DNA of 64,000 nucleotides from Psilocybe cubensis (Eukaryota): contig CM039009.1 in the NCBI GenBank assembly GCA_017499595.2, positions 2,480,001-2,544,000 on the forward strand. The letters are read 5' to 3'. Of this stretch, positions 1,138-55,643 are shown piece by piece. The translations under genes and the position numbers were made by a program. The stretch's first letter is position 1; each line of letters begins with the position of its first letter. The notes beneath the pieces are model-generated. The model saw nothing but the letters and a program-made list of their open reading frames with translations, was not told the origin of the DNA and searched no databases.

Positions 1138-2393
1138 GATATGTGAACAATTAAAAAAGCAAATTTAAGCACTTACGATGGATGTGATTCACATGCATTG
1201 ATACCACCCGCCCCAACTGAGCTTCTCGATTCCTCTGCACCTCATTGTAGCCAACCCGCATACAGTCTGTCTTTAAGTATATGCACAGTCCCATTTCCAT
1301 GAGCGCTCACCGAACCCAATTCCAATGCTTTTCCTTTCCCTTCCAATGCAGATGTTGTGCCAAACCGAACGTGAGATTAAGAGATAACTCTGAACTTGGA
1401 TTTGAGCCGAAACAACGCGAAGCGAGGTAGGAATGCGCACTTACTCTGAAGCATGTCCGCAGAAGCGCTCTCGCTTACCCACGGGGTCCCATTCCTATTC
1501 CATCACTCCAACCCACTTCAGTAGTGGGACCACGTATGGTTCAAAATGGGCAATCCCGATCAACGGTTGGATGAAGCGGGAGATACGGTGTGGGTGAGTC
1601 ATGTGTATGGGCAATTGTTGCCTGTATCCCGCATAGGATACCTCCCAGAGCTATCACAGTGGAGAAGATGTTATAATTGGGAACGCACATACTGAAAACG
1701 GGGAGGCTAACTGAAGGGGCCTTGAGGTCGAATCGGGAACCGTGGATCGAATGGGTTGTGATGACGTATGCGGAATATATGCAGGCTGGAGCAAATTGGG
1801 CGCGTTGAACACAGTAGCTGCATAGAAAATTATCTGCTCATGGGAAACGTAAACGATTTAGCGAATTGTGCTTTCTGGACTCGGTGGCAACTTCGAACAG
1901 AGTCGGGACTCGGGAAGCAGGACACGTGCTAACACTGGGGGGTTTGGCATATATAGTCGGGCCCGTCTTCGTCGATTTCATGTCCGATTCCATATGTAAA
2001 GTATTTAGTTATTTAATCACATGCGTATATCTAGCTTTCCCTTTGAAAAATATGCTGCTGTTGTGATTGTACAGTATTTTGTGCTTATTAATTGAGAAGA
2101 ATTCGAAGCCGAAAGAACAATTATATTTCATCATTCTTCACCGGCAGGTCGCAGACCACATGTCATGTACGTCTCATAAATAATAATTAATATGACTAAT
2201 CACGCTTTCAGATGTTCTCAAGCACGGTCACCCGATGTTGTGTAGATGGTGCACGACGCCCGCCCTGTGATCAGCAGCGGCGTCTGCAAAAAGAAAAGAA
2301 ATGTATTTGCGCAGTTTGTACTCTAAAAAATGTGTAACGACTGCGGGAGGTAATCTACTCCGGAAAAAGTCGTTCGGGGTGACCGGCGCACAT

Positions 2394-5300
2394 TCACTGG
2401 TCGGCGGCCTGATCACTCGCTTCCTCCGCGTGGCTGCTGAGACCCATTGAATCAAACTCCAGCATTAGCTTTGAAACATCGCTCAGTAGAGACAAACAGT
2501 GAAGCGGTAATAACAGCTTACCCTGTCCAATGGTAGTACGTGAAATAAACCTCTAAAGGGATCAGTGACAAGATTTGTCAATGCACAGTGTGATATAACT
2601 TGTGAGAGTTTAATCACTCGGGTCTGCGCCGTTTCCCTACAAAGATATCCTCCAAAGGTAAAGCTTTTGTAAGGGTCAAATATGGTTGTATCAATCGGAA
2701 CAAGTTCTCGCAGAATGAGAAAGTGGCCGTCGGCATATTGGTTCTCGGATATGGGATACCGATAGTGAAAAATGTGAGTCGTTATTCCGGCATACGAAGC
2801 AGCGTCCTGAGGATCGTCAGATCGGAATGTGATAGAACTATTTTTGAAGGTTGTTGCTCCTGAAACACCGTAGCAAACTCCTTTGCGAGATATTTCTTTC
2901 ACAAATGTTACGTCCCTTGGCATTGTATGAGTAGCTCTACCCAAAAGTTCGCAGAGCTGAGTATGATACGCTTGCCCTAATGGAGCGACATCAGACTTGC
3001 TTCGCTGGGTATATGTTGGCGAGTCAGGATCAAGGATTGTTGCCAAACGAAATCCTTGAATGTCCTCTTGGTCGATATTGTCCATGACATTTACAAGTTC
3101 AATGACTGATTTCCGCAAAGAAGTATTGTCAGAAAGCGCAGCCCGAATGTTTGCACTCCGGGCAGATGTGTAAAGTAGAGTAGATTCTAATTCGCCTAGA
3201 AAAGTGTTGATCAGCTTTGATGGTAGAATATGTGTAGAGGCCCTACGTACCAACTTTCATATTGGTATTTACACGATGGAAGAAATTAATATATCGCTCA
3301 TAATGAGGGCCGCTATGAGAGTGGTTTGGACCAAATAGTCCCAACATATCGCCTATATGAAGAGCGGCATGATGTGTTGGTTTCAATGCTTGGTCGGGAT
3401 AAAGGGACCTCAGCCTGGACACATAGCGAGTCATATAACGGTTGTATTCCTGGATTTGAAGTTCAGATGTAACACGCATATTTGCAATTCGAACGGCAGA
3501 GACGAGATCCATGAAATGTGAAAGCATTCTCCGTTTACGCTCAGTTCCATTCGCCCAGAGCCGAATAAGCGTAATAGGCAAGTGAATTGAGCAAATTACT
3601 CGCCAGTTGTCAGCGCTAAGTTTCCCCCGTCTGAATGTACCCCAGTCGGGAGGTGCGGGGGTAATCCATGTTGGAAGTTGAGTACGTGTCATCTCAGACC
3701 AAATTTCTTCCATGACATCGATTCCGAGTACAGGACGTGCAGAATCGTCTACAGTGGGGATATACATTTGCAGCTCTTGAGACGCCCCCGTATTTCGCTC
3801 TATCTGCATAGCAAGAGCGTGTTAATTTTACAGGTTAAACGAAACTGCATCAAATATATGCTTACTTCTCCAATTATCTTGTCAAATAAACGCCGCTTTG
3901 CGGTTTTCCTTCTTGTATCGACATCACTGGTGGATATGTGCACAAGATTACAGATGTACAGAAATGCAGCAACCGACCCTTGGCCATATGCCCAAGAATG
4001 AGATGCCTCAACATCTTCGCTAGCAAAGAGATGTCGTAAGATTCGAATGATAAGCGCACGATCAAGGCCACTATCCAAAGGAAGAATAGGAGTTTGTGAT
4101 ATAGCCAATTCATCGTTGGATGGGTCATCATCCAGAGAAACTAGGGAAGTGCTGACATCTACATAATTTGGACTGTTCCTCTGTATAAAAATATAACCGT
4201 AATGAGAATCCACATTGTCCAAAATACAATAGTTATGAGTACTCACCCAAGCCAATATGTTATTAACAAGTATCCATTTTGTCCCGATGATGCGCCGGTG
4301 ACCTTCTCCAATGATGTCATTTTCAACGCAGATCTGATACAGAACAGGGCGCGGATGCAAAAGAAGCTTTGTTATTAGGTCATCGTCGTTAGACCGGATG
4401 AGCTCCCGGCACTGTCGCAAATGCTGAAGGTGATCTTTGGATGTAAAATGTCGCTCATGAGGAAGTGAGGGTCCAATACCATCCCCACCCTGAGCGCCTG
4501 TGTTAATTTGAAAGACTGAGCGACAATGATTTTGGAATAAATTGAGGTCAAGCGCGTGCATAGGATCAATGACAGTAAAACAGATAACATCCCAATATGG
4601 AAGCGTATGAAGAGGCGACCACCATATGCCATATGATTCGAAAATAGTTTGCTGCTCCTTTTCACTGGCCGCATTCTTCCAAAGGTTAGCAACATGCTGA
4701 ATATGTTGCAAATCCTTGGACGGCCATTCTGCTCGATCTGTAATGTCTATATCGTCAAGATCAATTTCGCAAAAGGTGCAGAAATAATGAGATGTTGTAG
4801 CGCCCAGGCCAGCCATCTGGCGTGCAGCCAGCATGTCACAAATCAGAGAAATGAGCATAGCTTTGTAAAGTTGGCTGAATAGGCTACTCTCAGTCCGCGA
4901 AAATCGAACACCCTGGTACCAAAAATCCAAAAGATCTTCCATAACCAGTTCAACGTACGGATATATGTCTTCCTTCGATGGTTTATCTGGGCCGGGGATA
5001 ACACCTGCAACATACATGTTTTCGTGGAGATATCAAAGATGTGCCGGGAGGTTGAGTAAAACCATCCAAATACCAGTCGATGATATACTTTGTTTGGCGG
5101 TTTTATTGTGGAATGGGTTGAAGCTATCGACTGATAGGCTAAATAATAGCCTCCCCTCGCCATTATTACCGGGAATGAACTTGTTTCCAGAACCATCTTC
5201 TAGATTTTTAACAATACTTGCTGACCAAATGTCATTAACGGGTGAGGTGGGGGAGGTGCTGCTGAGATCCACATTCTGTTTGTCGATAAGTTCTTCCATC

Positions 5301-6446
5301 CCCTTTCTAGAGAGTAGACGTCCGACCCAATGCTTCAAATCCTGATGGACGTACTTCCGAATTGGGACTAGGTACGAGGTCCCACGGCTTGTAGTTTTTT
5401 CTTTCCAAAGAGGCATGTTACACTCATTGGACTCGGGGGTGCGGCGCTGCATACAAATTGAAATGAATGGATTACTGTCGTTGAGAGGACTATCACCGGG
5501 TTTGAATGGGTATAGTTTGTGGCAGGTTGGGCAAACAACAAATTGGCGTGTTTCAGGGTTCAAGCGTGCTCTATGTGCTCCTGACTGCGGATCCGCCGGT
5601 ATCTCTTCCACAACAGTCTCGGATGCATTGTTAGAGCGTAATAGAGATCGAGCGCCTGCCAATAAAGTTTGTAATGCTCGCCGCGGTACAAAAAACATAT
5701 TTTCCATGACGAGGGAAATATAGACAGCAACCCTCTGTCTTGGATTCAATGAAGGCAGAGGTGTGAAATATATATCTGCAATATAAGCCAGTATTATAAT
5801 CAGCACAATATAATTCTTTTTGAACAAGGGATTTCATACCTGTATTGACGTATGGACCATTTACGCGGCTATTTCCTCGCTGCTGAGACCACTGAACTTC
5901 TTTCATCCATACAAGTTCTCCCATTTTCTCCATAATACAATCCAATAAAGGTGTAATGTCATCAGAGTGCTGGATGAATGGATTTGTTGCCCAGTTGTAG
6001 ATTTCTCGAAGACGATGCGCAGCAAGTAAGTATGTTCTGTTGACAAGGCTGTTTTTCAACGAGTATAGCCCATGATTTGGAAGTAGAATTTCGTCGTCAT
6101 TGGGCCAAACAAATTGGCCATTGTCTTCTGGTTTGTTTACAAAGTCAAACGGACGCAGAGCATCAGACAGTGACTGGGACATTATGATATCTATTTCATC
6201 AAAGACCTCTTGAAACGGTGAGCCATCTGTGCTGCCGTCAGGAACATGTACTGGCTGTGGTGCGTGATTAGAAAGTGCTATCAGGAGTCTATCGTCTTTC
6301 ATGTGATTGTCGCGTGTAGGACGTGTCTGAAGTATACCATCTCCCTCATAGAGTCCAGTAGCGGCATTGAACGTTGTGCAGTGCGATTTGCATCTGCAGT
6401 TTACTATTACAGGCCGTGACCGGCCGCCACGTCCACGCCTTATCAT
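2394..6446 (-). pseudogene. CACTA/En-Spm Tnp2 (Transposase_21-like) transposase, spliced, one in-frame stop
   Basis: Motifs VVCPTC, LSVDSFNPF, VLLNLP..(R)Y..ENMYVAGVIPGP..P, LICDMLAAR, C..C, VIDPMH, GKLSADNW, KPTHH, YERY. Inferred introns 5776-5839, 4181-4246, 3804-3865, 3196-3250 and one near 2470-2521. TGA at 5033-5035 lies where the consensus has Arg (LPAHL*YLHENM). Confidence 0.88.
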
Positions 6447-6573
6447 GGTGAGAGGAAAAGGAATATGAAATAAAAGAAGTGACATTGAAGCGACAGTACA
6501 AAAGTAATGTATCAAGCATGTTCCTACTGCTATTGTTCCCGCTACTACGAGTTTGGAGTAATCTGTGTATTAG

Positions 6574-8210
6574 TCAGTCACTTGATCTTCTGGCAACACT
6601 AGATGGAGATGCAGAAGGCGCAGGAGTCAGCGATGCACGGCCTATATCTAATCGTTTCTTCTTATCCGCTTCTGCCAAATATTTCTTCTGATTAGAACTC
6701 CATGTCTCCTCCTTTATCCAACGTGGTCGTCCCTCCTTCCCAGGATAGACACTTAGGCAACGACTCGGGACCCTAGGGTGTGGGATTGGTTGTCCCGCAA
6801 ATGATCCGTAGTTAGATGAAATGTTTACCCAAACTCCTTGCTCATTAGGAGAAACACCGTCGACGTACATCCACACTTGTGCTTGCCTGAGTGACTGTGC
6901 GGCATGTGGGAACTAATTGAAGAGAAGGTCGCCAGATTGAGGCGGTTCTTCTAATGCTGCTACGGGTGGATTATCAAGAGGCCCTGTCGAGCATGATATG
7001 GTATAGGTAAAGTCGATTGGGCCGTCTATACCTTCCATCTCTGTGTGAAACACCTTGGCAGATAGCGCGGTAAAATATGCCGAAGTATTATTAGTGGATG
7101 TTGCAGTTGAGAGTGAGGTAGTAGCAGATGATAAGGAAGCACTTGAATTGGGTGCCAAAGAATGTGGAGGACTGACTTGACTCTGTGGAGTGGCATGACG
7201 GGCAACAGACTGGCGTGGTGTTCCCTCAGAAAAGGATGATGCTGCCAAGGATACAGACGCCGGAGAAACAGGCGGGAGCGGCAAGTTAGATGCGTGGGAA
7301 AGCATCCGGTCCAACGAAGAATGGGGAGGTGTAGACTGTTGATTTTGTGAAGTGGGGGAAAGAATTGGCGCGGTACGCAATCCTGAAGTGGCTGAAGATT
7401 CTCTGATATTCTGAGACACAGGACGTGCAGGCAAACTTCCCACTCCAACATCGATCCGTGACTGGATGGGAGGACTAGGAGTTGATCGAGAAGTAGGCGG
7501 ATTTAGTGGATACACGGCAATTGGGGCAGCAAGCGCAGCAGGTTCTCTAACTGATGTAGGACTGCGCTGTTGTGCTCTCGGGGTATTCGGTGCAGAAATA
7601 GATCCCGGGTCATTGTCAATAATAAATCTATGACTGGTGTTGTGAGCACTGACAGGGGTGTACAAAAGAGAGTTTCTATACAATAGATTTACATGATCAA
7701 TTGATTTTTTTGATATACATGAAATGAGAAAACTTACGGAGGATTCGTGTCTCTCTCTTCTCCAAATACAATGTAATGTAGACGGTTATAGACCTCGCCA
7801 ATGTCTTCATACCTGGTAGGTGGACCAAGGATATTGAGCTGGGAGAGCAACGCTCCATAGTCGTCTGTACTGCCAGTTATAATACTGACTACTTGATGAA
7901 CGTTCTGGGGGGAAACGGCAGACGAGTGAAAGTAGTAAGCAATCACCCGTCGAACTTCAGATGTCTTCTCCTCAATGCCGGCTCGATATGGCGCTGGCGT
8001 GAAGGGGAGTGACATTTCGCGGCGGCCACGATTGAAAGGCTCCTGGGGACCACTTTCCCGCCGTTCAACTGGATTAGCAACAGATCCAGAGTGATTGTGA
8101 CCGGTGCGCTGCCCCGAATGTCCACTAGAGCCTGAGATGCGTCTGAGCTCACAAGTAATTTCTTCAGTCCAATCCTGTTGTGACCGTTGCGCAATAACAT
8201 GGAAAGACAC
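6574..8210 (-). pseudogene. CACTA-internal gene 2: Ser/Pro-rich protein with a conserved-looking C-terminal domain (GDL..QVW..W..G..HP..L..PRWI..TW); in-frame TAG
   Basis: ORF 7734-8210 splices in frame (GTAAGT donor near 7737, TAG acceptor near 7676) to ORF 6913-7683, which continues through TAG at 6913-6915 into ORF 6574-6876. 5' end uncertain. Confidence 0.6.
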
Positions 8211-9605
8211 CTGGATTCCTTCACGGTCCGGACTGCGTTGACGCTCTGGTATATTGGATTCAGAGTGGTAGTGACTGTGCGCTGCAGAGACAGAGAACTC
8301 CCTCTGCTCATGAGAGTTATAGGGGGGCCTTGTATGCGCATACTTATAGTGAATAAAAGATCATATTTTAATCAATAACAACTGACCTTGTCATGTTTAG
8401 CTCCCCAAAATCGTGAGTAAGAAGCTATGATCAAGAGTGAGATAGCGTATTTGTGTTGATGAATATGGTATACGTACATCAATGTCCGGAAAATGTTCAA
8501 TCTGAACGAATAGTGGCTTATCATAGTTGGGAAGCCTTTGAGTGTTGAGCGGCGGGCTGGAGTCACTGTTTGGATCAAGGTCCTGGATTATGGATTGCAT
8601 GTCTAGGTGAACCAAGGTACAGAGAGGCAAAAAAATGTGTTGCTAATAACTGTATCGCAATGCGACAATTGATATCTTTGCTTCGAATGCCAAGATTCAG
8701 AAGAGTAACGAGTTAGCTCGGTGATATGGCCCGCATTGTCAGATATGATTTATAAGAATTCGGTGGAAGTATTTGAGTAAAACCACTTGATAAGTTACAT
8801 CTCATGACCTACAGTGCTGTTTTCCAACGCATAGAAGCACTGAACATTGGCCAATTGGGTGACATGTTGGCAATATGGTTACACCTTTGTATTCTACTGC
8901 TTCAAAATTGCTACAACTGCTGACTCTCTTTGCTACTTATTACTTTGTCAATGTCTGGTAACCTGGCTTGTGGCTTAATGCACTTCTAACCCTCTCTGTT
9001 ACACTCTACCTGGACTATAATGTTAATGCGGTCAACTATGGCCCGTGCGTACGTGTTACTCTTAGGTAATGCGTTCTAGACCAACCTAGAGTCTAGACCA
9101 CTTGTGCCATTCTTGAATCATGTGACTGACAGAAGCATGAATCAACAAAAAATGGTTGAGTGCGCATGTGCATTACCGTTGCCGCTGAAGAGGCTTCCTA
9201 TGCTAGTGGTAGCGCAGAAACAATACGCCTGCGTGTTTTGATCCCCTCATACGTTGGTGGCAGATTAACTATTTTGAGGTGTCAACATATATTGTGATCA
9301 GCATATGTGATTGGTGTCCAATTGTCTAAGTGGTATGTTTTGGGACTTCCAACACTTATTATTGTGCCAAAATTCAATTCAAGAAGTATTGAAATCAAAG
9401 ATATAGAATTGTAGAATCATTGTTGTCAAGTATATATACATTATCAAAACTTTTTCCCTCTTTTGGACCATTTTGAATGGCAGGGAACATACAAAAAAAA
9501 GATTTCGTATCAAGAATGTTGGGGCACTCCTACCCTCTTTCGGAACCTGTGCTAACACGGTAGGGAGGACGAGCCCTGATTAATTTGAGGATGGTGGCTA
9601 CAACA

Positions 9606-11494
9606 TTAGACTTGGAAATATCTATTGAAAAATGTAGTTAGTGCCACAGTATAATGAAGAAATATGTTTGACTCACGCAAAGAGTCGGTTGTCGTGATTG
9701 AAGTTGTAGTTCTCATCGGTCGGGCGAACATCAAACATATAAAATGGCCTAGCGGCAAGCCAGTTTGGGTTGTATGCCATGATGGGTAAGTCAGTGACAA
9801 AGCCCTTGCTGTCGCTGTCTTCTCCAGATGCAACGCGGAGGCGAGGAAATGAGCCGCGATGCTTACCATTGGATCTCCTAAAAAGAACCTGGAGCGAATC
9901 AATTGTCTGCAGCCAGTAGGAGAGGGCAGAGGCACGCCAGGCAGGGGGATGCACTTTGTATCTTGGAGCACCCCCTGTGGCAGTGCTTGCCGGGCCATCC
10001 TCAAAATCGCTCTTGTCTGAGCTCATCCCTGCAATACCGAGACGTTGTAGAATGGGTACATGCTCTTGTAGGAGGGGGTGCTCCTGGGCAATCCCAAGAC
10101 GCTTGTGGAAGAGCTAAAACATTGAATAAGTAAATGTAATAATGGAATATACATTAAATTTAATACATACATTTTGTTTTCTTTGCCAGCGGCGCTTAGC
10201 AGTGGTTTCGGCCTGTCGAGCAGCATTGTCCGCATTCTTCCTCCGAAAAGCTGCCTGAAGAGACTTCATCCTCTGGTAAAAATAATTCTGGACCAGAGGG
10301 AAATAGCTGTGACTATATGCCGATGTGGTAATGAAGTGCTTGGCAAAAACTTGTGAAGCTGATTGGTTCCAATCACTTCGGGGAGAACCAATGAGGTCGA
10401 CCTTAAAATTGTCAATGTCACAGCAAGATGGACGTGGCTCAGCTGTAGAAGACTTCCAGATAGATCCAAAAACATTGAGCTCGTCACAAGTCAAGACATT
10501 CTCGAAGCTCAGAAAATCATCACCGAGCAGTCGGCTGAGCTCTGCTCTGACTTGGCGCTATAGACAGAACAGTGAGACCGAGTATTCCGGATATTATACT
10601 AAAATACTTCTCACCATGAGAGCAGTTCGGTCTGCTGGGCGCCTATTTGGACCAAGTGGTCGAGTTGAGATAACTCCAAGACGAGAGGTTGGGGTAGTAG
10701 TAGGCCCCTGAGCCGACGCTGCTGCTGCTGCTGCTGCTGTGAGTGACTGGATTGCTGCTAAGACGGCAGTGATGTTAGCTTCTAAACGTGTGAGTCGAAC
10801 ATTGGTCGAGTCCGTTACAATCTACAATAAAAACATTAATATGACAAAAAAATTTCAACCATTCACTTACCATTTGAGCCTCGTCATCCAAGGCAATATA
10901 ATCTTCATCTTCCATCTCCTCTGCAGAGTCAGAACTGAGTTCATCATGCATCTAAGAATACAACCAAATTTCGTTTGCTAATCAGAGTATGTATAGTGTC
11001 AACAAGTAACAGACTTACCTCTTCATCTTGGGGACTGTTGTCAGACGTTTCATCACAAGCCTAACAAAGGTTGTTAGAAAAACTTAACAAATTTTGTGCA
11101 TAAGACAGTTTGGCTTACGACCATCATAGAACCTTTTACGTCGTTGTTGTGTGGAGCAGAAACAGGAGAAAAATTCTCCAGGGAACCAGTGTGAGTTCCA
11201 AAGGATGATTCGCTCCCCGTGTCAGTGCGATTCAAATCAAAACCGCGAATGAAAGACTCGGCGAACTGAGGAGAGAATGCGCTCTGCTGGGCCGTTTGGA
11301 AACTCTCGCTACTACAAACAGATGCAGTAACAGAGGCAGAGAGCGATGTTGGTGGACTGCTGTCAGAAAATCCTTTAACATAAGGTCAGTTATTTGATTC
11401 CAATGTGCTTTACACAGAACTACGCACCTTTGTAGCTTGCAGTTGCAGACATTGGGTGACTGCGACTGGTGGAGTAGAAGCTTCTGAATGACAT
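9606..11494 (-). CDS. CACTA-internal gene 3: multi-exon hypothetical protein with a GMSSDxSD...PAWR...L..WL..ID motif (Agaricomycete TE-associated family, possible TnpA-like accessory)
   Basis: ATG at 11494 followed by a GTGCGT donor; exons include ORFs 10114-10494 and 9673-10026; last exon YFQV* ends at 9606. Internal exon boundaries only partly resolved. Confidence 0.6.
10718..10738. repeat. (GCT)n microsatellite (Ala run in gene 3)
   Basis: gctgctgctgctgctgctgct. Confidence 0.8.
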
Positions 11495-12514
11495 CGCTCT
11501 TTGAGTTGGGAAGAGGAGCTGAGGAGTATTAGGCTGGAAAATGGACGCCTTTTATGTCTTTGGGATGCTTTGCTTACTTTGTAGAATATAATCAGCGTTC
11601 TTCCAACTCTGCCTCATGTTTTCCTATTTCTCAAAGTCATGGCCCAAGATGGAGATATAACATGAGGTTTTGACGAGTCAAGCAACACATTATAATTACC
11701 ACGTTCAGATAACTTATGGGATATGTAGAATTAATGTGCCCTATATTTGCCGCCCACTAGTACTGCACTCCACCAAGTACACATCACGGTTTTCAAAATA
11801 TCAATGCCTCTGTTAAACATAGAAAGTATTCACAAATTTTACTTTCCTTAAATCTTTCACTAGAGCCCTATCTAGTGTCGCAGTGGTGCATCATTGTCAC
11901 CACAAACCGTGTTCATCTGAACTAACAAAGTACCACGGTCATGTAAGTTTTCCCACAAGGGTTTGTGTGCGTGTTCAGGCCCAGAACAGTCATTAGGCTT
12001 CTAAACAGCCGAAGCAAGACCTTTTAGGGCTTATTATCTACGCAGTTCATGCGCGTTTTGATTTTTTGGACTTTGAGCGCAGACAGAAGGGCCGCAGCAA
12101 TGCAAATCAGGACCACACGCATTGTATTACCGTCATCCCAGCTTCTCACCTATGGACCAATATGCACACGAGGATTTAATGCCCGAGTTGATGCTTATTC
12201 ATGCCCGGGATATCCTTAGCCATTCTCATACAATTGTATCTACCCAAGAGTACCAAGCAGGTCTGAGATAGGCTTGTAAAGCTTCTTAAACCTGGTTCAA
12301 ATCCATGGCCGGTCTTAAGAGTACAATGTGAATATGTATCCTAGAGCATGTGCTAATGTACGGTCCGAGTCCGGCTCTAATTGCAATGACTGATAAGATA
12401 GGTGAGCCAACGTGCTGCAATATTCTCCTTATGATCAAATGCTAATTCAATTCCCAACTTCCCACTGAGATTTTAACCATAATGTTATCATCTACATGAT
12501 TGAAGGCGTCATAT

Positions 12515-14396
12515 CTAACTCCTATAGGCCCCTTCTGTCCAATTATCAATGGTGATTGGATTGAAACTTCCAATCATCTGACGGCCCGGGTCCGACTCAA
12601 TGAATCTGACGCTCAAAGGTTAGGACACATGTTGAGCAATTATACCGGAGTTCTAGCACTCACCTGGCTGGTCCCCGAATATACATTGGTTCAGCCGTCA
12701 CTAAAGCTTCTTCTTCAGCGCTCTGAGGAGAAGGACAATTCTAGCGCAGTATGGCATTAGACCCCATGACGAGAGAATAAAGAAATACTTATCATGCAGA
12801 AATTTTCTAGACACTCTGCCATTGTACTAGCGAAAGAGGCATGCCTGTGCAAGTTTCGGTTGAGGTTTACCAAGTTATACTTTGAATTTGCCCTCTCGTC
12901 CTAACAAAGTCAATGAGATTTGGGTGAAAAAATGTGGATGGAACTCACAAATCTCTTTACCCATTTTTCAATTATTCTAGAATTTACTCCTGGGCGATGG
13001 GGAATGCGAATATACTCATAATTATTGGAGAATATAAGCTCCTTCAAATTCGCAGTCCTGATGTTCTCAGGTGCATACAGACGTCTTGCCTTTGGAACTT
13101 GACCCTTCCACTGAGAAAGATTATTGTAGTAGTGGGGATGCTTGTGCTCCATCTCGCCGACAATCAGAAATGAAAGGCCTTGTGGATACTCCTGTAAGTC
13201 GATGTCATAAAGCTTTGTATAGATGTCATTATGTATCCAGTTAGACAAAAAGATTTGGACATACTTTCTGGTAAGCAATATTATGACGATTTAATTCGGG
13301 ATAGTGGACCTCAAATCCCCGTTCAGAATACTTCACAAAGCGAACTTCATAGGAAGGTGATCTTCGTGATATATCTATCAAGTTTGACTGACAGATCAAC
13401 GCCGCAAGCGCCCGAGGATTTACGTAGACACTTTGACCTAATAGCACAGTTAATAAAATAAATGTACCAATTTGTGTCAAGAAATTCGTACCATCAAACA
13501 AGCAACATGAGCAGTCGATGTCAAACCCAGCAAGAATCTCAGACGGTGACATATACAGTCGCATTATAATTTGGATTGGCCTTACAGGCCATGTTGCTAA
13601 GAAAAATATGGTGAGCATCTTTAAAAACACATCGGAAAAATTAGTAGTTGTCGCACTATAGATTGTAATGGTATTTGCCCTGCGCACGCAAATTGTATGA
13701 AAAGGGATTGTTTCTTGAATTGAATTGTATATATTCTCCATCTTCTGAAGGGCCTACGAGATAATGAGATGTCAGTAAGTGTATGCCGGAGGATGGTAAA
13801 GCGTAGTTGACCTCTTGGTGAGACAGTCCAAAAATGAATAAGTCAATATCGGAGTCCCAGTATGCAGGCAACTGGTACAAGTCGTTGAGCTCCATGTTTG
13901 AGCTAGACGCATTAACAGGAGGTGATAGACAACCCAACACAGATCCTCCAGCAACAACAATATTTTCCCAGCTTGGGAGCCTTGACAGAGCGCCATGAGA
14001 GAAGATATGAAAATTGTTCAGAAAGGCCTCAATACTAGGAACAATGGCACGGTTACCCCGGGGCCTGACAAGTCCAGACTGAAGAGGTAGGAGATGGGAT
14101 GCTGGAAATTCTTCGTAGCTATTGTCTGGAAAAGTCAAAATGTGCATATTCTCTGTGTCTGAGCGAGGGCGGGAACGTAAAACTGCGTCGGGAACCTGGA
14201 ATATATTAATCAAGCCCAGATAGGGATCTTCGGTAAGAAAGGGGTGATTCCTGTGCTGAGCAAACCAACGACGAATTTGCTGCTCATAATGAAGGCAGTT
14301 GGTGAGTGCAATATTGACTTCCTCCCTGCTAGCATCAAGAGGGAGTAGCAAGACTCGAGATAAAAATTCCTCAATGATTTCAGGAAATGTTGCCAT
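12515..14396 (-). CDS. CACTA-internal gene 4: stand-alone Pol-beta-superfamily nucleotidyltransferase-like protein, homologous to the N-terminal domain of fungal NTase-ankyrin proteins
   Basis: Spliced exons give NIVVAGGSVLGCL...SDIDLFIFGL, IQIIMRLY.SPSEILAGFDIDC, RRSPSYEVR..KY.ERGF, LHRH, CPSP..EE..YIRGP, DPGRQMIGSFNPI...WTEGAY, then a stop at 12515-12517. No ankyrin repeats follow. Confidence 0.72.
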
Positions 14397-14547
14397 AGGA
14401 AAACGTGTTAAAGCTGCCTTCCTGCGACAATTACTTATAACCAAATATATTCCCATAGAGAAAAAAAAACAATTTAACACATTGCATATGGACTCGGATG
14501 TTTATTATGTACAAGTCAATGAGTAATCTATGTATGGAGAAATACCA

Positions 14548-16385
14548 TCACGCGCTATTACTCCCTACAGTAGGTAATGCAATTGAAGCAGACCCAGTGA
14601 CCATCCCGGTTAATGTGAATGCATAGAAGGGATGCGCAGGAGAGGTTGGTGATCCCTCCAAGAAAAGGGGCTGGGAAGATGGATTCACCAAAGTTTCTGA
14701 TGCGGAATTGGTGGGATGTTCAGTTACTGCGGCGACCTGTAGATGTGGCGGAGGCAAGTGGGACTCCGTGCTGAGCAAATATTTCCCATACAATGTTGAA
14801 GAAATTGTAACAAGCAACAACATTGCTACTTGCATAGTGGTGAAGTGGAAAGTATTAGCACTATACATAGTGAGCGGACGTGTCCTAGTTGAAGGGTATT
14901 GATCATCCTGTATCACCGTGGTTAAAATTAATTGAACATTAGAACAAACTGATTATGCATACCAATGTGCTATCAATTTCTCCAATACCGGATTCGTCGT
15001 TGTTTTGTATGAGTCCAACGTGGATAGTATTGGCAATGGCACCGTGTGTGCGCATCCATGGACTAAATGCGGGTATAACGGCAAAGATGTGAGGCTGGTG
15101 ATTGACAAGACCAAATGTTATGGCTTGTACTGGAGCTGGGTAACATAATTAGAATGTAATGCTCTCTTTGAAAACTCTTTGACATACCTCGGTAATTGTC
15201 GTCATCGAGCGCAAAGGTCCCGCATATCTCGCTAACGCCAAATGTCGCAAAAGCAACATAGCCATCAGAATGGCCAACGGCAACAGTATCTTCGTCAACA
15301 AAGATTATATTGACTATCAGATTTTTTGGGGGAGTTCGGCTAGATAAGACATAGCGCGTAGTCGACAAAAGACATCGATGGGTGGTTGAATAGAAGTCTA
15401 TACCGTCACACATGTTCATAACGGCAACTTGTTCTCCGGACGGTGAGATTGCAGCGGAGCCCAGACTGTAGACCATAGTTGTTATAACAAACAAGTTACA
15501 AAGGAATTGCAATATCACTTACAAGGTGTTATCTCGTAGTTGAATGGACCACTTGCTGGAATAGTCATTAAGGCTGTATGCTCTATAATTGACGAATTAG
15601 CGTTGTCCAGAAATAATAGATGAAGAAGTATGACACACGTTATTCCTCCTGTACCAAGGAAAGGGATGATTACTATCCGGCTTGAGGCAAAAAATATTCC
15701 GCATGAGAATTTATATTCGGAAAGACTCTGAACGTTGGGAGACAATGACACGTTCAGTCTAGCCATTTTCCCCAGCTCATTTGGCTCTATTACGCCTATC
15801 AGACCATGACATCAGTAATGAGATGTGCTTGTAATGACTCACCCATGAACGGGTCTTTTACGATGGAAACAGATCGCCCATGACCAATTGCAAGCCTTGA
15901 TCCGTCTGGACTCAGCTGCAGCGAGTGTATATAGCCTGGTATAATAGCGCTAGATGTAACATAGCTCTGAAAGGGGTGCATTAGAGTCAGTGAGGCGAAA
16001 AGTGCACACAAAGAAGTAAAACTAACCCCATCCAATTGCATAGTGATCCTATGTAAAGACCCATTGGCAGATCCACAAAAAATAGTCAAGTCCTCCGATG
16101 GGTGCCATGCAAGGGCGCGAATAGATGTACCGCTTTTGTAAATGCCGAATCTTCTCCAAACTGAGTCATGGAGCATGTAAATCTAGGAGTTATTAAGCAC
16201 ACTAAACACCTAGAATAAATTAATGACCTTTCACATACTTCAAGGAGGCCCTCATCGTTACCGACTGCAAGAAATCGACCACTGTGCGAGAGCTTCAGAG
16301 TGTGAGCAGCTTCTTTGCCATGCAGAGTGATAATTGCCTGTCGATGTACGTGGGAATTCCTGTAAAATATCCGGGAAGGCGTCAT
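14548..16385 (-). CDS. CACTA-internal gene 5: WD40-repeat beta-propeller protein with a possible C-terminal hydrophobic helix
   Basis: WD40-like strands LKLSHSGRFLAVGNDEG, IRALAWHPS, IHSLQLSPDGSRLAIGHG and AAISPSGEQVAVMN..DGID across several exons; hydrophobic AMLLLVTISSTLYG near the 3' end. 3' boundary approximate. Confidence 0.72.
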
Positions 16386-17149
16386 TTCTGGCTCGAGAAA
16401 GTTGAGTAAAAGTGACGACTAGAGGATGGGGCCTACACTCAACACTTGTCTTTGGCGTCGATCATTATAAAGATAGAATCCCGAGCCTCAAATTTGGTCA
16501 AAAATTATTCTTTCAAAGCATTCCTACAGAGTACGGCCTGCATCGTGTACAAAAAACGGAACTCACATCGTCTGATCTGGTGCCAAGATCACTTGGCTCT
16601 TTGTGCGACAGCTATTTTTGAAATATTTGCCACATTTCTAGCCGGCCAAAACAGCCGGCTATTTTTCAAAGATTATTTGTCAAGGAAGCATCAGAGGTAA
16701 GGAGCTGAACAGTAGAATATATTTCAAAAGTCGATATCGATACTTTTCAAAGATAATCCCCTGTTTAGGCTGACCAGAAGAAGCTCGATGGACACATTCG
16801 AATCCAACTTTGAAATGGCGCAGTAGGATGATGAGGTACTTAAAGTTGCGCGAACTTGAAAGCCAAGTTCCTCAGTCACCCCTACTCATCAGCATCCCCA
16901 AAATCAATATGGTGAGCATCATGTTATGCTTTGATTACTACAAGAATTCTGACCACAAGTTCTATCTAGCTTACGCGCCACGAGACCAAGATTGTCGAGT
17001 TACCAACTCATAGCACAGAACAAGTTGTGCATGTAATCAGGAGCCAAAGATTACGAGACAAGGTATGTTTTCCACTTTATAGCCAGTGAAGACCTAGAAC
17101 TAAAGTACGATCCTGCAACAGAAGTACAGGAAAGGGCTGCTTTATTCTT

Positions 17150-17640
17150 TAACAACGGCAAATCCAATGCTGCTCCAATGTTGACTCGCAGCCACGGACT
17201 CTGGCAGTTTCACCGAAACTCCTCAGATTGACATAGCCGGAGTGCTTGTAAATCCTAATTGCATCCCCACGGCATCCACCATTGTCACGGTCGATCGTCA
17301 TCGTTTCCTTATAATGGGTTACTATGACAGCACCCTTCCTCAAAATCTCAATTTACATGAGATTTGTCCTCATGCGCCCTGGCACGGAGAGCTCATAATA
17401 TTCTCTCTGGGACGTCGAACTCGCATCCTTTCACGTCCTGTTGGCCGGTTATTTACCCAAAAGGCCATTTCTATGTAAGTTATTTACTTTTAAATTGTGC
17501 ACAGATACAAGTTTACCTACCATGTATATTTCAGATACGTACGAGCTACCTTGGAGGCGCGATCCGCTGGAGTAGAGTGTCCTTCCCAAATTTCATTCAT
17601 CACACAATCCGTTTTCACTGCTTAGTTTACTTTCACGATG
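17150..17640 (+). CDS. CACTA-internal gene 6: small hypothetical protein (N..L......PWHGELIIFSLG motif), possibly degenerate
   Basis: ORF 17242-17478 with a GTAAGT donor near 17475 and a downstream exon YVRATLEAIRW...; the 5' frame is broken or uncertain. Confidence 0.4.
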
Positions 17641-20305
17641 GTGTCACAGTGTTTGTACAATACATGGGTCAAATAGAACCACAGTCAGAGAGATTATGTC
17701 ATATTCGATATCCCTCGCGGTTATGCCAGGTGCAGAAAATAAATAAGATATGGAAACGTGCTAATCTGATATGTCTGAATTAAGCCATGGCAGAATTTCA
17801 AAATCCGTCCGAGATGTAAACTATGCCTACTGTTGAATAGGTAGTCGAGGTTTGACGGGGTGACATAAACAGCAAAATATCTTTGAAAAATCTTTCCTAT
17901 TTCTGATCTAATCCAGAACAATAATTATATTTAAAATTTAGTCGCAATATAAGAGACGATTTTATTATCGACTATATATGCCAATCCCCGCAGTGTAAGT
18001 TCGGCAAATACCCCTCCAATCGGATATAATCGGCTTGTCGGCCAATCTCGTTGACAATCATTGCCATCGCTCGACAGTAGTCGACAGTACCCTCAGCAGT
18101 ATCCCCCGAATCTCTCCTCCTCTACTTGGGTTTAATATCGGTGCGACTGGGCCATTAGTGGATAGACTTTACTTCCCATTAATAATGATTAACTCAAAAG
18201 CGAGCGCCTGGGGGTCACCGATGCCAACGATTACTGGCATCGATATTTGGGATCCAGTCGACCCCTGATTGTTTCTTTACAGCTCGAACGTATGCGAAGG
18301 TTCCTATAAAGCGCCTTCACCTACATTAAAAGCACTGAGAGGAAACAAACAGGATCAGATGGTATGATATTCGATGGATATTCCTGAAAACATGCCACTG
18401 CAAGCTCACCGCCACAGTTCTTTCCTTGTCTTTCCATTTCATACTGTGTTTTCCCGCTTCTCCCGATGGGTCCATTTTCTGACATCATGCTATCTGGAGT
18501 CTCCCTTATTTGAACGCTTTTACTGGATTTTTTTTTTTGCACCTGTGGCCTCTATCAAAATATCTGGGTATCAGCCTTGCCACCAGCCTATTACGCACCC
18601 ACGCTCATGCTGGCTTCCTGATCTTATGTCCATGCATTGTACCCACTCGTGTTATGTCTAGGAAAACCAATATCATGGTTGTGGAGTGTGTGTATCAACC
18701 GATGTGGTCGGTGTTCCATTTGTAATGGCCATCACGATGTCCATCAAGTCCACGTCCACACAACGGAGCTGCGGACATCCATGAGGTCGAAATACACACA
18801 GGACGAACCTATATAAGAACACCACATATTCTCAAAGTTTCTTCACGCCTCTTACTACCTACCTTCATTACCACCACACGGAAGACGATATAACATTATG
18901 CCATTCTTCCTCAGAAGAGGGCCGGGGACGTTTCCCCAATCCTTGGTATACGCTTCGCCTTCGATATATGTGCCACCACGGAGTTACACCACTCTTCCTC
19001 CACATATCTGTCTATCGCTACACACGACTGCGTGTCAGTTGTGACCTTGGGCAAGCGACTTGGAGAGGGAGATATGATGGCGGCACACCTCCTTGCCCAC
19101 TCTCGACCACGCATTTGATATACTGGAACGCCTGCTGTCACCACAAACATCCTGTTTGCACCGCAATGCAGTAAATGGCGTGTACTAAAGCGCCTGGAGG
19201 AATACAATACCCTCACTCACATCCACACAAAGATGAATGGCGCCCGTAGTGCTCGTATTGCAGCAGTGATGATGGCTTGGAAGAAGATATTTCATTGACA
19301 ATTGTCGTGAAAATCATGGTGTGATGGGTTTGGGACATAAATTAGACTCTTGAGGTTACATATATACAGATATCAAGAGATGTTATTAATCCACGCTATT
19401 TACACAGCTTTCTCACTGAGATTCTGGATGCAAGGATATAGTTTTAGTTGATTACTACAGGGGTCCGTGCATGGGAAATATGTGTGCTCTGGGCCAGTCT
19501 GGGCCCAACTGAAATTGCACTCATAGGCTATGTCGGCTGAGCTGCACACAAACAAGCTCGTGTTGTGCAAGTGCAATGTGTACAAATACCTGATGTTCAT
19601 CAAGCAAGATCGCGCGACACCAATGTCTGTATGATCTGAATTGTGTTGTGACAGATATCCGGCGGTTCTGCATGAAATGACATGCTTATTATACGTCAGA
19701 ACATTACTGAAGTGTAACATAGGTAGGCTCCGACGGTTGATGCACACCCACACCGTAACGCAGAAGTACTGGAAAGCATCAGTCAACCACACCATATATG
19801 GTACAACGCAAGCGCCAACGGAATGGCAGAACACATATCGAAGCCAATTCTTTTCAACTTTGAAACTGAGGTCAAGTGACAGCAAACAGGAATAACAGGA
19901 GCACTATTATAATGTTTTTGTGGCTAATATACCAAATGCGGGTGAGTATTCTATGAATCAGTTACCGCCCACTTCGGAGGGGTGACCGGGATTTCGAGCT
20001 TCCGACATGTACATTCAAGATACTCAGGCAACACACATGTCATTTCAGAGTCTTGGGTAAGGTACATGTTTAATTATATCGTATGTTTCTTTTTGTATTT
20101 ACTCAAGAAGAAACTAGAATAATCTTCCCGTCATATTACCATACAAAATGTCTAGTGTCAAGATGAGACATGATTAAACCCTTTGATATATACTCACAGG
20201 CCTCGGATATCCAACTCCATACGGTGCAAGAGAGAAAGAAGCCTTTAAAACAGACGATGAATTTATTATCTTCCTTACAAGTTACCCTTCCCCACCACAG
20301 TCACA

Positions 20306-21337
20306 ATGTCCACCAACGCCAATTTTCCCAAACAAAGGAAACTTAAATTCTTCTACGATGGTTTGGATAGGGATGTCGAGTTGGTACTCTTACTCGCCCG
20401 CCCCATGGACAAGTACGCATTCTGCTGGAGTATGTGGTTCCATTCACTTGATGGCAATAAAGTGCTAATGCCCAATTGCTAAAGAGGTCATAAAATGCCA
20501 AGCTGGTGTAAAACATTCTGAACTTGTCACCTACGTTGACAAAACCGCACTTGCTGTTCCCGATGCAAGTCTACACTCCAATATATATAGTGCGACACTT
20601 TGCTTACATGTACCGCATGGCTGCAGGAGGATACTGGACGTGTCATCCCTGGATCGCCCGTTGTTCCTTGTCAGGTATGAGGTGACATCCCTTTCCATGA
20701 GTACAATACTCATTGCCATTTTGACTAGGCTGGCCAGAAATGCACAATGAAAATGGATGAAGAGGGCAACAATTATCTTACCCCTACCGTGGACTATGAG
20801 GCACCTACATCTATTACATGCTACTTTGATACAACCGACCGGGCGGATATCATATTTGTATGTCCATCACTGCAAATTCTGTCGATCATTGACATGTCAG
20901 TATATTCCGGGCTCAATGAACGAACTTTCACGTGCACAGGGGCTCCTGGAAGGAAGCGATAAGACAACAATGTGTCCAGTTACAAAGTTTCGAGATATTA
21001 AGTATGTAAAGAATTCTACAGTCATTCTGCAATACAAGCTCATGCTCTGATTTTCGTTTCTCAGACCCGGAACGACCCTTATGCTGGAATTCACCCCAAT
21101 GCTAAGTGTCTATGCTGTCGACGGATACCATGGTGAGTAACGCCTTCATGAAACCCTTTTCTAGATGACTCACATTATCCATCATGTCAATCAATAGCTC
21201 AAGATATCTTCAAGTCGGCATCGGAGTCCCAACCATTACTTTGCCAAAATCTCAATGATCTCCGGCGTTATACGAAGTGGGAGGTTCTTACAGATAAGGA
21301 TAGTGGTTGTGTCAAAATCGTGCTTCAAGATGACTAG
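20306..21337 (+). CDS. Multi-exon hypothetical protein (Agaricomycete family with ...LEFTPMLSVY...L..YTKWEV... C-terminus)
   Basis: ATG 20306 (MSTNANFPKQRKLKFF), several GT-AG introns, terminal exon QDIFKSASESQPLLCQNLNDLRRYTKWEVLTDKDSGCVKIVLQDD* ending at 21337. Confidence 0.5.
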
Positions 21338-22729: not shown

Positions 22730-24237
22730 CATCCGAGGGCAGTTGGGATGGTATCGTTGATGAGATGGAGAACGTTGAGATTGGAAATGGAAGCGGGATT
22801 GATGGTAGCTCTTTTGACAATGAAAGCCAACCCAAGTTTTCAAAATATCAGCATATTCATTAAGCACATTTGAAGTCAGAGATCATAAAGTAAGGTAAAG
22901 AAGGAGATCTCGGCTCCATGTAAATCTGCCCAGGAGGATATCAAGGCCAAAATCATCCGCCAAACGTGGCTAAAGTTGCCGCTTGTTATTCCTGATGGGT
23001 GGGATTTGTCTCGGTAAAATCTTGAGATCTTCACTTTATTATACAAGCAAAGGCTATCGTAACCGCTATATCTACGACAAGAATGAAAATACAGGCTGGA
23101 TTTGTGCTACTGAGCATAGTCTTCAAAGACTTATGGTGTCGGGAGATTGCGAGCATAACAGCGGAATGCGACAAGGGTGTTGGGAAATGACCACTGGCTA
23201 CGGGAAGGCAATACATAGCGGCGGCGCACATAGGGGTGACGTTGTGGACACACTGAAACATTCCAAGCAGAGTTGTTGGTCGGAGAAGAGGATTCGTAAT
23301 AATTTACACACAGTGTTAGCACTTTGTTTGACCTATTCAACGCTCCTCAAGGGATGTGGGAGATACTTGGAAACAAGAATTAGCACATAGATCTACAGGG
23401 ATTGTGGTCGTTCAAGAAAGCTCCCACTTCCCCGAGCCTGTGCATGTGCATTCGTCCATAGATGAGATTCCCATGCCTTGCCATGTCCTGCCATTAGTCC
23501 ACATCGTGTGCTGCAAATATTTCCCACGTACAATCGTGAAGCCTCGATAGTGGATGATATTAGAATATTCTTTGGCTTCCCCTACAACGTCCATCTTTCA
23601 GACATAGAGAAAAACTAAACACTAAACACTGCCCAAGTAATATGGCCACAGCTACGCCGCCAGGGCTTCCCATAGAGGTTATCAACACTATCATGGAGAT
23701 TGCAGTCGCTACACTTGATCCCCAATCTATTTCATCGATAACACTCCTCTCACACCATTTCCGTAACATAGCCAACAAACAGCGCTTCTCTAAACTCAAG
23801 TTTGACACTGTAACCATTTGGACCCTTTTCCAAAGACTGGCAATTCTCGTTGAGGAAGCGGCTGGATACCCAATGCGTGGTATACAAACATTTATCACCT
23901 CTATCTACATACACATTCCCGATGACTACGATCCAGACAAAATGCAACCCCACATTACAGTTTTCAACCATCTATTCAGAGATGATGTCATACTATTCTC
24001 ACCTATTCGAAAGCTGTCGCTTTATATGACCGACGTTGCAGGGTCGTTTAATATGGACCCTGCACTGGATGCATCATTAAGGTCGTTGCTAAAGGAATCA
24101 CACATCAACTTCCTGGAGCTGTATCATTCAGAGGAAATTCCTTGCGATCTTCTTCATGGATCAAGAATTGAACACCTCTCACTGTGGGATGCGGGTTTAT
24201 TATCCAAACGTTATAGCGTCCCCATGGAATTGGATCC

Positions 24238-24561
24238 TGTTGACATCCACCGATCTACCACGATGACGTCAGACCACCTTTATTATTTTCCCCCACATTC
24301 CTAAACAACCACCTTTATATTCGTCCACGTAGAATAACCCTTTGTACTATGGGGAGGTATATAGTACCGACCCACATCGATGCAGAACCTCAGTCTCTAT
24401 CATATAGAACTGAGGTATGCATGTTTTCACTTTCACACTTTATCCAATATCTAATGTACCGTATAGTCTATTTCTCTACTCTAGGTACATTGTCATGTAA
24501 TTCAGTCTCTATCATATAGAACTGAGTCTATTTCTCTACTCTAGGGTCTAGATTTTCTACA
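24238..24561 (+). repeat. Copia 5' LTR
   Basis: tgttgacatcc...ttttctaca; identical by eye to 29541-29864. Confidence 0.97.
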
Positions 24562-29460: not shown

Positions 29461-29530
29461 ACTTTTCATTTCTATATCTTCTTCATTACACATTTATATT
29501 TCTTTCCTTCATAACATCGCGCTACCTCGT

Positions 29531-29540
29531 TGAGGAGGAG
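29531..29540 (+). promoter_or_regulatory. Copia polypurine tract
   Basis: tgaggaggag immediately before the 3' LTR. Confidence 0.85.
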
Positions 29541-29864
29541 TGTTGACATCCACCGATCTACCACGATGACGTCAGACCACCTTTATTATTTTCCCCCACA
29601 TTCCTAAACAACCACCTTTATATTCGTCCACGTAGAATAACCCTTTGTACTATGGGGAGGTATATAGTACCGACCCACATCGATGCAGAACCTCAGTCTC
29701 TATCATATAGAACTGAGGTATGCATGTTTTCACTTTCACACTTTATCCAATATCTAATGTACCGTATAGTCTATTTCTCTACTCTAGGTACATTGTCATG
29801 TAATTCAGTCTCTATCATATAGAACTGAGTCTATTTCTCTACTCTAGGGTCTAGATTTTCTACA
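29541..29864 (+). repeat. Copia 3' LTR
   Basis: Direct repeat of 24238-24561, followed by TSD GATCC. Confidence 0.97.
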
Positions 29865-30360
29865 GATCCCATCAATCTCAAGTCGCTCTCTATGTCCTTG
29901 TATCCCTCCACTTCTTTTCAAATAGGTGATCTGTTAGTTTTACTTGGTGCGCGCAGATCCAGTCCTTTTCACCACCTGACTTCGTTGTCTATATCAACCT
30001 CATTGATAACATTTACAATCGAATTGCTTCAATTGACAAAATGTCTGGAGACACTGACTCTGGACTTTGCAGAGGAAACGTACAGATGTAAGTCTTTGGT
30101 TCCATCGAAATTTCCAAGTTGAAATGTATTTGCTTTTTTCAGTGATAGCTCACAGGCTTGATTCCGGGCAGCATTTCCTAGATTCTCAGCTGTTTTACCA
30201 TCTGAAGTGTATCGAGATCAAGTACTCATTACACGCTAGGCAGCATGACCCGGACGGATCCTTGAAAGCCGCCTTGGTCGGACAGTCTCTCCCCCCTCAC
30301 CTCGAAATGCTTTGCATAACAATGAGGATACATGATACAGCACACAGCACCCCGGACGGA

Positions 30361-31481: not shown

Positions 31482-31509
31482 ACACTACCTACATAATCTA
31501 CACTAAGAA

Positions 31510-32898: not shown

Positions 32899-33717
32899 AG
32901 CACTTGAGGAGCGTTTAATTCTTAGTTTTGTTTTATCTCTGAAAGATGAACGCTGTAGATGAAGACAAGGAATACTCCATTCTCATCCACCTTCACGCGT
33001 CATGATTGTATGTGAGAATTATTTTCAGCTCACGTGCTAAGGAGTGGCTGTGCTGTCGATGCGGCAGAGCCTGGCAAATCACAACTAAAGTACAATCGTA
33101 CATAACTGCATTTGTGTCCATGCAGACCTATGTGAAGATACTGTAAGATGACCAAGAATGCACTTCCTGTAGTCAATATCAGTGATATCTTTGAGCAGCG
33201 AGTAAACAGAGTTACTCTCTTGACCTCAAGGGGAGGGTTAATTTCACAGAAAATCCGGTTATTTCCCCCTGCTCCTGACTACTCTGGACCTGATGTTGCC
33301 ATGTTCCTACCCATTCAAAATATAGGTGCACCCAGGAGCGGAGCATATCGTGGTTTCTAGTTGAGATTACTATACAGAAAATCGACGCCAGCGTTTGTAT
33401 TAATGAGTACACGCATCAATGGATTTGGATTGCCAATGTGTTAAGGTTCCAGAAAACGACACTTCATTTTCGTCTCTGGCATCTTTACGGTTTAAGGGTT
33501 CCCACCTGGGAATGCTAATGAACGCAGCTTTGGATGCGTATACAGCAAATATTAGCGCCTAATACGTGGCAAGGATATCTTTTAACACCCGATGCACCCG
33601 ATGTAGTCCGTCGCATGAAAATAACTATTGTTTACTACTGGTTTCCTACATCTGTACCATAATACAATGTAAAAGCAACCTATCGCTTCAAAATACCGAG
33701 GAGACTGTACATCTCCC

Positions 33718-55414: not shown

Positions 55415-55643
55415 ATGAACATGGTGGTTGAGTGGTGAGTGGCGGGATGAAGGGTCGCATTACCAAATCGGACTCAATCATGTGACCTGCACCCCCCAAG
55501 TCCAACTCAGAGTTGAACTTCGAGTCCGCCGTCTTTGCCCACTTTATTCCCCCTCTGCTTTTGCTCCTCATCGCCCGCCCTTCTTTTGCCCCCTTTACTA
55601 TTAACTGTACAACCAGGTAAGTATTTAGATTTTTAATTTTCTG

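Follow-up and report, generated by a model that had tools for sequence, protein, structure and literature searches.

Evidence for a recently mobile EnSpm/CACTA transposon of Psilocybe cubensis with an old, selected accessory gene core that includes a captured nucleotidyltransferase

The window analysed here, 64,000 nucleotides of the Psilocybe cubensis genome (C12:2480001-2544000 of 46.6 Mb in 21 contigs; exons agree at 99-100% with named proteins of this species), contains a 16-kb block with CACTG ends and six genes, and we consider it highly probable that this block is a recently mobile EnSpm/CACTA DNA transposon with an old, selected accessory core that includes a captured nucleotidyltransferase (NTase). 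A preliminary description of the window had proposed that everything between two 27-bp terminal inverted repeats (TIRs), flanked by a TAA duplication, moved as one unit, and both parts of this proposal are borne out. The TIRs are inverted, start with CACTG and are identical at 25 of 27 bases, with a TAA directly outside each of them; the TIR pattern matched six times in the genome, forming three pairs, and the reversed control gave no match. A second copy of the block (copy 2) is located at C12:2013140-2029042 in the opposite orientation, is 99.2% identical over 15,645 bp and is flanked by a different target-site duplication (TSD), TGT. Four public sequencing runs, drawn from three studies and none of them marked as a possible source of the window DNA, were aligned to window positions 1200-20500, and three of the four runs contained the exact empty site with a single TAA (joint 1929>17996, three shared letters), which appeared in contigs of runs X8 and X9 and in nine raw reads of run X12. 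In run X12, the depth over the element amounted to about one third of the flank depth and, together with the joint reads, this indicates that both filled and empty alleles are present. The empty site in the fourth run, X6, differs from this version by one base within 1930-1932, reflecting either a polymorphism or an excision footprint, and the same run yielded a 16,013-nt contig spanning the whole element that is close to copy 2 (115 differing letters and 6 in gaps) and lacks a 154-bp insert of the window copy. For two runs, available as contigs only, there was no depth over the element interior. The block between the CACTG ends thus entered this site with a 3-bp duplication, and strains differ in whether they carry it.

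The genome also contains more distant relatives of this element. A relaxed TIR pattern gave 38 matches genome-wide, 26 of which, at two mismatches or fewer, form 13 pairs, and the 12 matches at three mismatches were discarded as noise (reversed control, 34+17). Six pairs enclose short sequences (366-1725 bp, five of six with a TSD) and the other seven enclose large elements, each with a 3-bp TSD that varies between insertions (TAA, TGT, TGA, ATA, AGT, AGT and ATA). The large elements, which are also the top seven of 23 transposase matches, reside on C12 (two of 16 kb), C1 (25.0 kb), C8 (25.8 kb), C6 (44.6 kb), C9 (54.6 kb) and C5 (76.8 kb). The C9 element equals the C6 element plus a 10-kb internal duplication, in different flanks, and the C5 element (C5:2272474-2349289) has CACTA ends, inverted ends of about 1.08 kb (98%), the TSD ATA and three nested 6.4-kb repeats with a 1298-aa frame in each. 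The C1 relative contains an opposite-strand insert of about 9 kb (C1:245800-254800) with a weak Plavaka match at E 0.01 and a DUF6698 match at E 0.03, which is probably a nested Plavaka element, and for which no TIR pair or TSD could be placed.

Gene content is maintained throughout this family. Small gene C, the WD40 gene, the NTase and gene B are present in all seven large elements, and every match found in this genome lies inside a TIR-bounded element in the cases of small gene C (7/7), the WD40 gene (7/7), gene B (8/8) and gene A (5/5), the last with a weaker further match aligned in the C6 element. Gene order varies: in the C12 and C1 elements it is C-WD40-NTase-B-A-transposase, and in the C8, C6 and C9 elements the transposase is reversed and the NTase lies ahead of the C/WD40 pair, which itself is arranged head to head in every element compared. 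Proteins of the window-type element are 50-66% identical to those of the C1 relative and 31-43% identical to those of the other elements, and across all families identities range from 30 to 66% with frames and introns kept. When copy 2 was compared to the C1 relative, the proportion of differing replacement sites (pN) was 0.22-0.33 and that of differing silent sites (pS) 0.73-0.81 for the five accessory genes; silent sites are therefore saturated and replacement sites are not, indicating purifying selection on all five. Presence in every large element, variable order and selection together argue for an old family core that was reshuffled as modules and long kept in the seven elements, not for fresh cargo. 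The genes had initially been described as cargo, a view that does not hold, since the core is conserved at 30-66% protein identity and under purifying selection, and a host origin could be shown for the NTase only. Comparing gene content between copies, as had been suggested, thus revealed no large element with matching TIRs that lacks the core. The further idea that such elements account for the expansion of hypothetical families applies fully to this genome and only partly elsewhere. Metagenomes contained 104 loci with a related transposase, and in the best 80 of these (22 reach 9 kb and several come from one sample) gene A was found beside the transposase at six loci, the WD40 gene at five, small gene C at four and gene B at three, with no matches for the reversed controls. 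Gene B falls in a large fungal protein family that has no name (420 clusters at E ≤ 0.001) and includes named homologues in Agrocybe, Hypsizygus, Tricholomella, Coprinopsis, Phlebia and Pleurotus. A model of a 293-aa relative (predicted local distance difference test score, pLDDT, 83.3) reached a best Z of 4.6 and no Foldseek match at E ≤ 0.001, and the Atlas gave leads only, namely unnamed Basidiomycota and Mucoromycota clusters and DUF4616/DUF8263.

The NTase is the one accessory gene for which sequence comparison demonstrates a host origin. It is homologous to the N-terminal third of fungal ankyrin-repeat proteins of about 1800 aa, which carry precomputed assignments to Pfam PF26128 and to ankyrin families; PF26128, absent from the Pfam copy scanned, we take to be the family named Gad2. 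Two host NTase-ankyrin genes occur in this genome (C4:3450184-3463666 and C4:3560996-3567019), and in the first of these an interruption of about 8 kb follows residue 627 of the reference protein. Element NTases are about 40% identical to these genes and have seven intron positions in common with them, the host genes possessing one extra intron (414/phase 1). The element NTase ends where the host frame continues into the ankyrins, and lacks these and the C-terminal two thirds. The shared introns and the stop before the ankyrins imply a capture at the DNA level with truncation, and the GG[SA]..DxD motif is conserved in all five element families. A phylogeny of 40 sequences (FastTree) places the element NTases in one group (support 0.988) with ankyrin-less proteins from Gymnopilus dilepis, Galerina, Hebeloma, Pholiota and Candolleomyces, separate from the slow-branched host NTase-ankyrin genes, those of Psilocybe included. 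A forced clade of Psilocybe element and host NTases was rejected with 29 sequences (log-likelihood difference 147.8; approximately unbiased test, p-AU = 5e-44), a test for which 11 of the 40 sequences were left out as redundant or poorly aligned and which used 5,000 replicates, below the advice of the program. It follows that the capture is old or that the element crossed species. These comparisons indicate that the NTase was taken from a fungal NTase-ankyrin gene, cut before the ankyrins, and did not come recently from a Psilocybe copy. Also noticed, at C8:2775137-2776853, was an NTase without ankyrins that stands alone and whose first catalytic position is degenerate; it is sister to the C12 and C1 copies in the tree, and no TIR pair or TSD was found around it.

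The structure of the NTase was modelled on a Galerina relative of about 40% identity (pLDDT 83.8). The best matches of this model are tRNA-processing and CCA-adding enzymes (3wfr_E, E 6.2e-4; 3wfo_A, Z 9.1, root-mean-square deviation 3.5, 176 aligned), followed by matches at Z 7.5 and by TENT5B at Z 7.4, with sequence identities to solved enzymes of 11-14%. The predicted fold, together with the G[GS]..DxD motif, agrees with the class II NTase head domain and resembles that of CCA-adding enzymes and bacterial poly(A) polymerases at the low identities just given. Among giant viruses there are 74 matches to the modelled protein at E ≤ 0.001 (best 1.8e-33), and the phage NTase family phrog_1614 of PHROG matches the window exon weakly (E 0.015) and a giant-virus relative at 1e-10. 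Against the sequences of solved structures, the single NTase protein found no match and its profile found only ankyrin matches among the 60 listed; NCBIfam gave nothing useful.

Class assignment of the element relies on ends, TSD and transposase. The window transposase fragment matches Pfam Transposase_21 at E 1.7e-5, below the cut-off, and the transposase of the C1 relative scores 44.4 bits, above the cut-off of 28.6. The transposase motifs follow in order at residues 417, 514, 535, 961 and 984, with C(2)C and H(3-4)H between the acidic motifs, and their assignment to D/D/E presumably holds. EnSpm elements are defined by short TIRs of the form CAC(T)..(A)GTG and a 3-bp TSD (PMC12730594 section 3.1.5), and CAC..GTG ends, a 3-bp TSD and a Transposase_21 transposase therefore place the element in EnSpm/CACTA. 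Plavaka elements end in TGT..ACA or CATCA..TGATG (PMC12730594 section 3.2.2) and are ruled out, as the ends here are CACTG..CAGTG and the transposase is Transposase_21, not PF18759. The element also differs from Pack-CACTA, which is non-autonomous and carries recently captured, decaying host fragments, by having its own transposase, selected genes and an old capture. Starships are defined by a tyrosine-recombinase captain gene; here the mobilising gene is a DDE transposase of the Tnp2 type and the ends are TIRs with a 3-bp TSD.

Gene models were derived from comparison with the C1 relative and have GT..AG introns of 47-67 nt. All six genes originally proposed between the TIRs yield spliceable models, and these are listed with the ends of the element in Table 1.

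Table 1. Features of the EnSpm/CACTA element of Psilocybe cubensis in window coordinates.
Feature	Position	Strand	Basis or remark
Left target-site duplication TAA	1930..1932	.	Single TAA at empty site
Left terminal inverted repeat, 27 bp, CACTG start	1933..1959	+	TIR pattern search
154-bp insert, window copy only	2197..2350	.	Comparison with copy 2
EnSpm/CACTA DDE transposase, 6 exons, 1250 aa	2394..6446	-	Pfam Transposase_21, motifs
Gene A, 4 exons, 617 aa, Ser/Pro-rich middle, conserved C-terminal part	6574..8600	-	Model; no Pfam match
Gene B, 8 exons, 496 aa, acidic N-terminus, basic helical C-terminal domain; frame open	9606..11494	-	
Class II-like nucleotidyltransferase (NTase), 8 exons, 499 aa	12515..14396	-	Captured N-terminal module of host NTase-ankyrin gene
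WD40 beta-propeller gene, 8 exons, 484 aa, hydrophobic stretch near C-terminus; frame open	14548..16385	-	
Small gene C, 4 exons, 179 aa, head-to-head with WD40 gene	16909..17625	+	
Right terminal inverted repeat	17969..17995	-	
Right target-site duplication TAA	17996..17998	.	

A Pfam scan of 20 exon frames gave Transposase_21 and WD40 as the sole meaningful matches, and none for genes A and B. The hydrophobic stretch near the C-terminus of the WD40 protein comes from the last exon (14548-14907); it is conserved in the C1 relative and might anchor the protein in a membrane. For small gene C, 10 candidates of 64-207 aa yielded no match at E ≤ 0.001, and the best Atlas score of 0.82 is a lead only. 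As regards the earlier designation of the element as intact, this is true of its ends; inside, frames of the window copy are cut short by stops in the transposase (codon 450 of 1250), gene A (codon 505 of 617) and small gene C (codon 53 of 179), the splice donor of NTase intron 6 is lost, and the 154-bp insert is present. In copy 2 all six frames are open, with one altered acceptor in WD40 intron 3. The two copies differ at 116 sites, 106 of them transitions and 74 of these at CpG, a bias consistent with methylation pressure. With the C1 relative as outgroup, 43 coding differences in four genes were assigned to the window copy in 26 cases and to copy 2 in eight, nine being left unassigned. The excess of window-derived changes and the CpG transitions suggest that the window copy is older, worn by methylation and non-autonomous, and copy 2 is the near-intact one. 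The 154-bp insert, which has no counterpart in copy 2, corresponds at 99% identity to 159 bp of a repeat unit that recurs at intervals of about 1.1 kb at C6:2.27-2.30 Mb; the first 77 bp of this unit are also present on many contigs (80-88%). At the joint of the insert five letters can be assigned to either side. Rfam searches gave no matches on two source loci of the insert (E ≤ 1) or in window 1200-19000 (gathering score), and ARAGORN found no tRNA at six loci. Separately, pieces of the transposase 3' region (window 2443-3091 and 4743-4783) were seen in other surroundings in runs X6, X9 and X12, with a joint 2475>2988 and loose ends at 2443 and 3091 in X9, and loose ends at 2443, 4743 and 4783 in X12.

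CACTA transposases excise their elements at the TIRs, insert them with a 3-bp staggered cut and also move broken or short copies in trans. By this precedent, the DDE transposase would cut the block at its TIRs and insert it in the same manner, and it may mobilise the broken window copy and the short derivatives in trans. Gene B, whose product is basic and helical, may fill the role of the second, DNA-binding CACTA protein, and the WD40/small-gene pair might act as an adaptor module. The NTase, freed of the ankyrin sensor part, may attach nucleotides to the 3' ends of RNA such as small RNAs or element transcripts, or may modify a host defence factor in this way, an activity that would ease the silencing of its own element, as has been proposed for transposon-borne TET/JBP genes. 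We tentatively favour such a counter-silencing or counter-defence role by RNA tailing or host-factor modification, to which we give somewhat less than an even chance, because of the RNA-acting fold of the model, the loss of the ankyrins, the CpG decay and the TET/JBP parallel. Several fungal transposon superfamilies keep TET/JBP genes, for which counter-silencing is likewise a proposed role (PMC12730594 section 4.2). A bolder version, which we regard as rather doubtful, is that, in a common ancestor of Psilocybe, Gymnopilus, Galerina, Hebeloma and Pholiota, an agaric EnSpm lineage domesticated the catalytic half of an NTase-ankyrin protein of its host, and that this half is now a constitutive RNA-tailing or protein-modifying counter-defence enzyme. 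If true, this would be a eukaryotic transposon with a phage-style anti-defence NTase, and would link the uncharacterised NTase family of fungi and giant viruses to genetic conflict.

Other explanations for the NTase and its companions were weighed against these data. An unlikely one is that the NTase acts in transposition chemistry, by filling or tailing DNA ends, or modifies the transposase, without any effect on host silencing. The polymerase-beta-type fold with an intact DxD and the presence of the gene in 7/7 large elements would fit such a function; however, the best structural matches are RNA-acting enzymes, none of the 80 metagenome loci with a related transposase has an NTase, and a mobile CACTG element of Cryptococcus, 7.5 kb long, has a single annotated gene (PMC12810828). 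We give little credence to a Starship-like situation in which the genes are kept through a benefit to the host fungus. Purifying selection fits any useful gene and the element is polymorphic among strains, but each divergent family keeps a full gene set of its own in one genome, a pattern that has been read as benefit to the element (PMC12730594 section 4.2), the host already has NTase-ankyrin genes, and the element interior is without depth in two runs (contigs only).

The ankyrin-less NTase might also be a constitutive toxin with the small gene or the WD40 gene as antidote, which would make the element addictive or a spore killer. Its catalytic module is indeed cut free of the repeat sensor domain, its relatives abound in giant viruses, with the 74 matches mentioned above, and the phage NTase Gad2 inhibits a defence system and proved toxic on expression (bioRxiv 10.1101/2023.05.01.538930). 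Yet small gene C and the WD40 gene occur beside transposases without an NTase, and empty and filled alleles coexist in run X12, so that we hold this explanation for very improbable. Least credible of all is a Pack-CACTA-like element, with additional genes that were recently acquired from the host, whole or in fragments, and are functionless passengers. Introns are retained in the host-derived NTase, and amino-acid changes outnumber silent ones between the near-identical copies (47 versus 18 in five genes), but by the assignments given above (26, 8 and 9 of 43) this excess is largely decay of the window copy. Between families silent sites are saturated and replacement sites are not, frames and introns are conserved in relatives of 30-66% identity, a recent capture from a Psilocybe host NTase gene was rejected, and small gene C, the WD40 gene, gene B and gene A have no match outside the elements in this genome, which largely refutes this possibility. 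What probability remains falls to NTase roles that we did not foresee.

Several results weigh against a recently mobile element with an old, functional accessory core, or against parts of this interpretation. All six short TIR derivatives are devoid of accessory genes. The absence of an NTase from the 80 metagenome loci, only 22 of which reach 9 kb, implies that EnSpm elements at large do not require it. The ankyrin-less NTase clade has long branches and may partly be an artefact, one of its members is marked as partial, and those from outside Psilocybe entered the comparison as protein sequences. The fold match of the NTase is moderate and equally near TENT5B. Finally, no 8-10-mer occurs more than three times near the element ends, and this weakens the analogy of gene B with TnpA: neither a fold match nor a subterminal binding-site repeat supports gene B as the second protein.

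Plant En/Spm elements encode TnpD and TnpA, have a Transposase_21 (Tnp2) transposase, CACT ends and a 3-bp TSD, and as Pack-CACTA capture host DNA. Transposase, ends, TSD and the capture of host DNA are shared by the element studied here, in which subterminal repeat arrays were not detected and in which, unlike a decaying Pack-CACTA fragment, the captured gene comprises a whole domain, is spliceable and is under selection. A contrast with two-gene plant elements had been drawn initially, which overstated the novelty, as multi-gene EnSpm elements of similar size are in print (PMC6431247; PMC12730594 Table S1). Enlarged En/Spm elements of the red alga Chondrus crispus measure 16-20 kb and have 4-5 open reading frames instead of 1-2 (PMC6431247), similar in size and gene number, in a different host kingdom. 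EnSpm-1_PGr of the rust Puccinia, from a TET/JBP-bearing EnSpm family (consensus of 24,178 characters, about 24 kb; PMC12730594 Table S1), has in common with the element the CAC..GTG ends, a 3-bp TSD, large size and an enzyme gene kept across families, but its passenger is a dioxygenase whereas here it is a class II-like NTase. That Table S1 contains no entry for 'Psilocybe', 'nucleotidyltransferase' or 'WD40'. CNIRT6 of Cryptococcus neoformans, an active CACTG element with a 24-bp TIR and a variable 3-bp TSD (PMC12810828), also shares CACTG ends, a short TIR, the variable 3-bp TSD and a basidiomycete host, in contrast measuring 7.5 kb with one annotated gene as compared to 16 kb and six genes. 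In the literature covered, which did not extend to Repbase and subscription journals, neither this element nor any fungal DNA transposon with an NTase was found described. Large multi-gene EnSpm elements being already published, the new aspect is a selected, anciently captured NTase in such an element.

These findings show large multi-gene cut-and-paste elements of mushrooms to be built from a stable, reshuffled accessory set of their own, which accounts for several families of 'hypothetical proteins'. The element NTase belongs to a widespread, uncharacterised family of fungi and giant viruses and, should it counter silencing, would join TET/JBP as a second counter-defence enzyme carried by fungal transposons. 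With one copy near-intact, another broken by natural mutation and some strains having the empty site, what each gene does is open to direct experiment.

Other repeats were observed in the window outside the element. An inverted repeat of 935 nt (52049-52983 and 53849-54783; 97% complementary, 865 nt apart) lies in an AT-rich stretch. At least four diverged copies of one gene-sized unit, 70-80% alike and on both strands, occupy 23335-24537, 29526-33311 and 41378-44400, and exact duplications of 300 nt and 93 nt were found among them. Short tandem or dispersed repeat arrays with 17-nt, 10-nt-based and 57-72-nt units are located at 996-1150, 47137-47809, 55084-55848 and 58348-58935.

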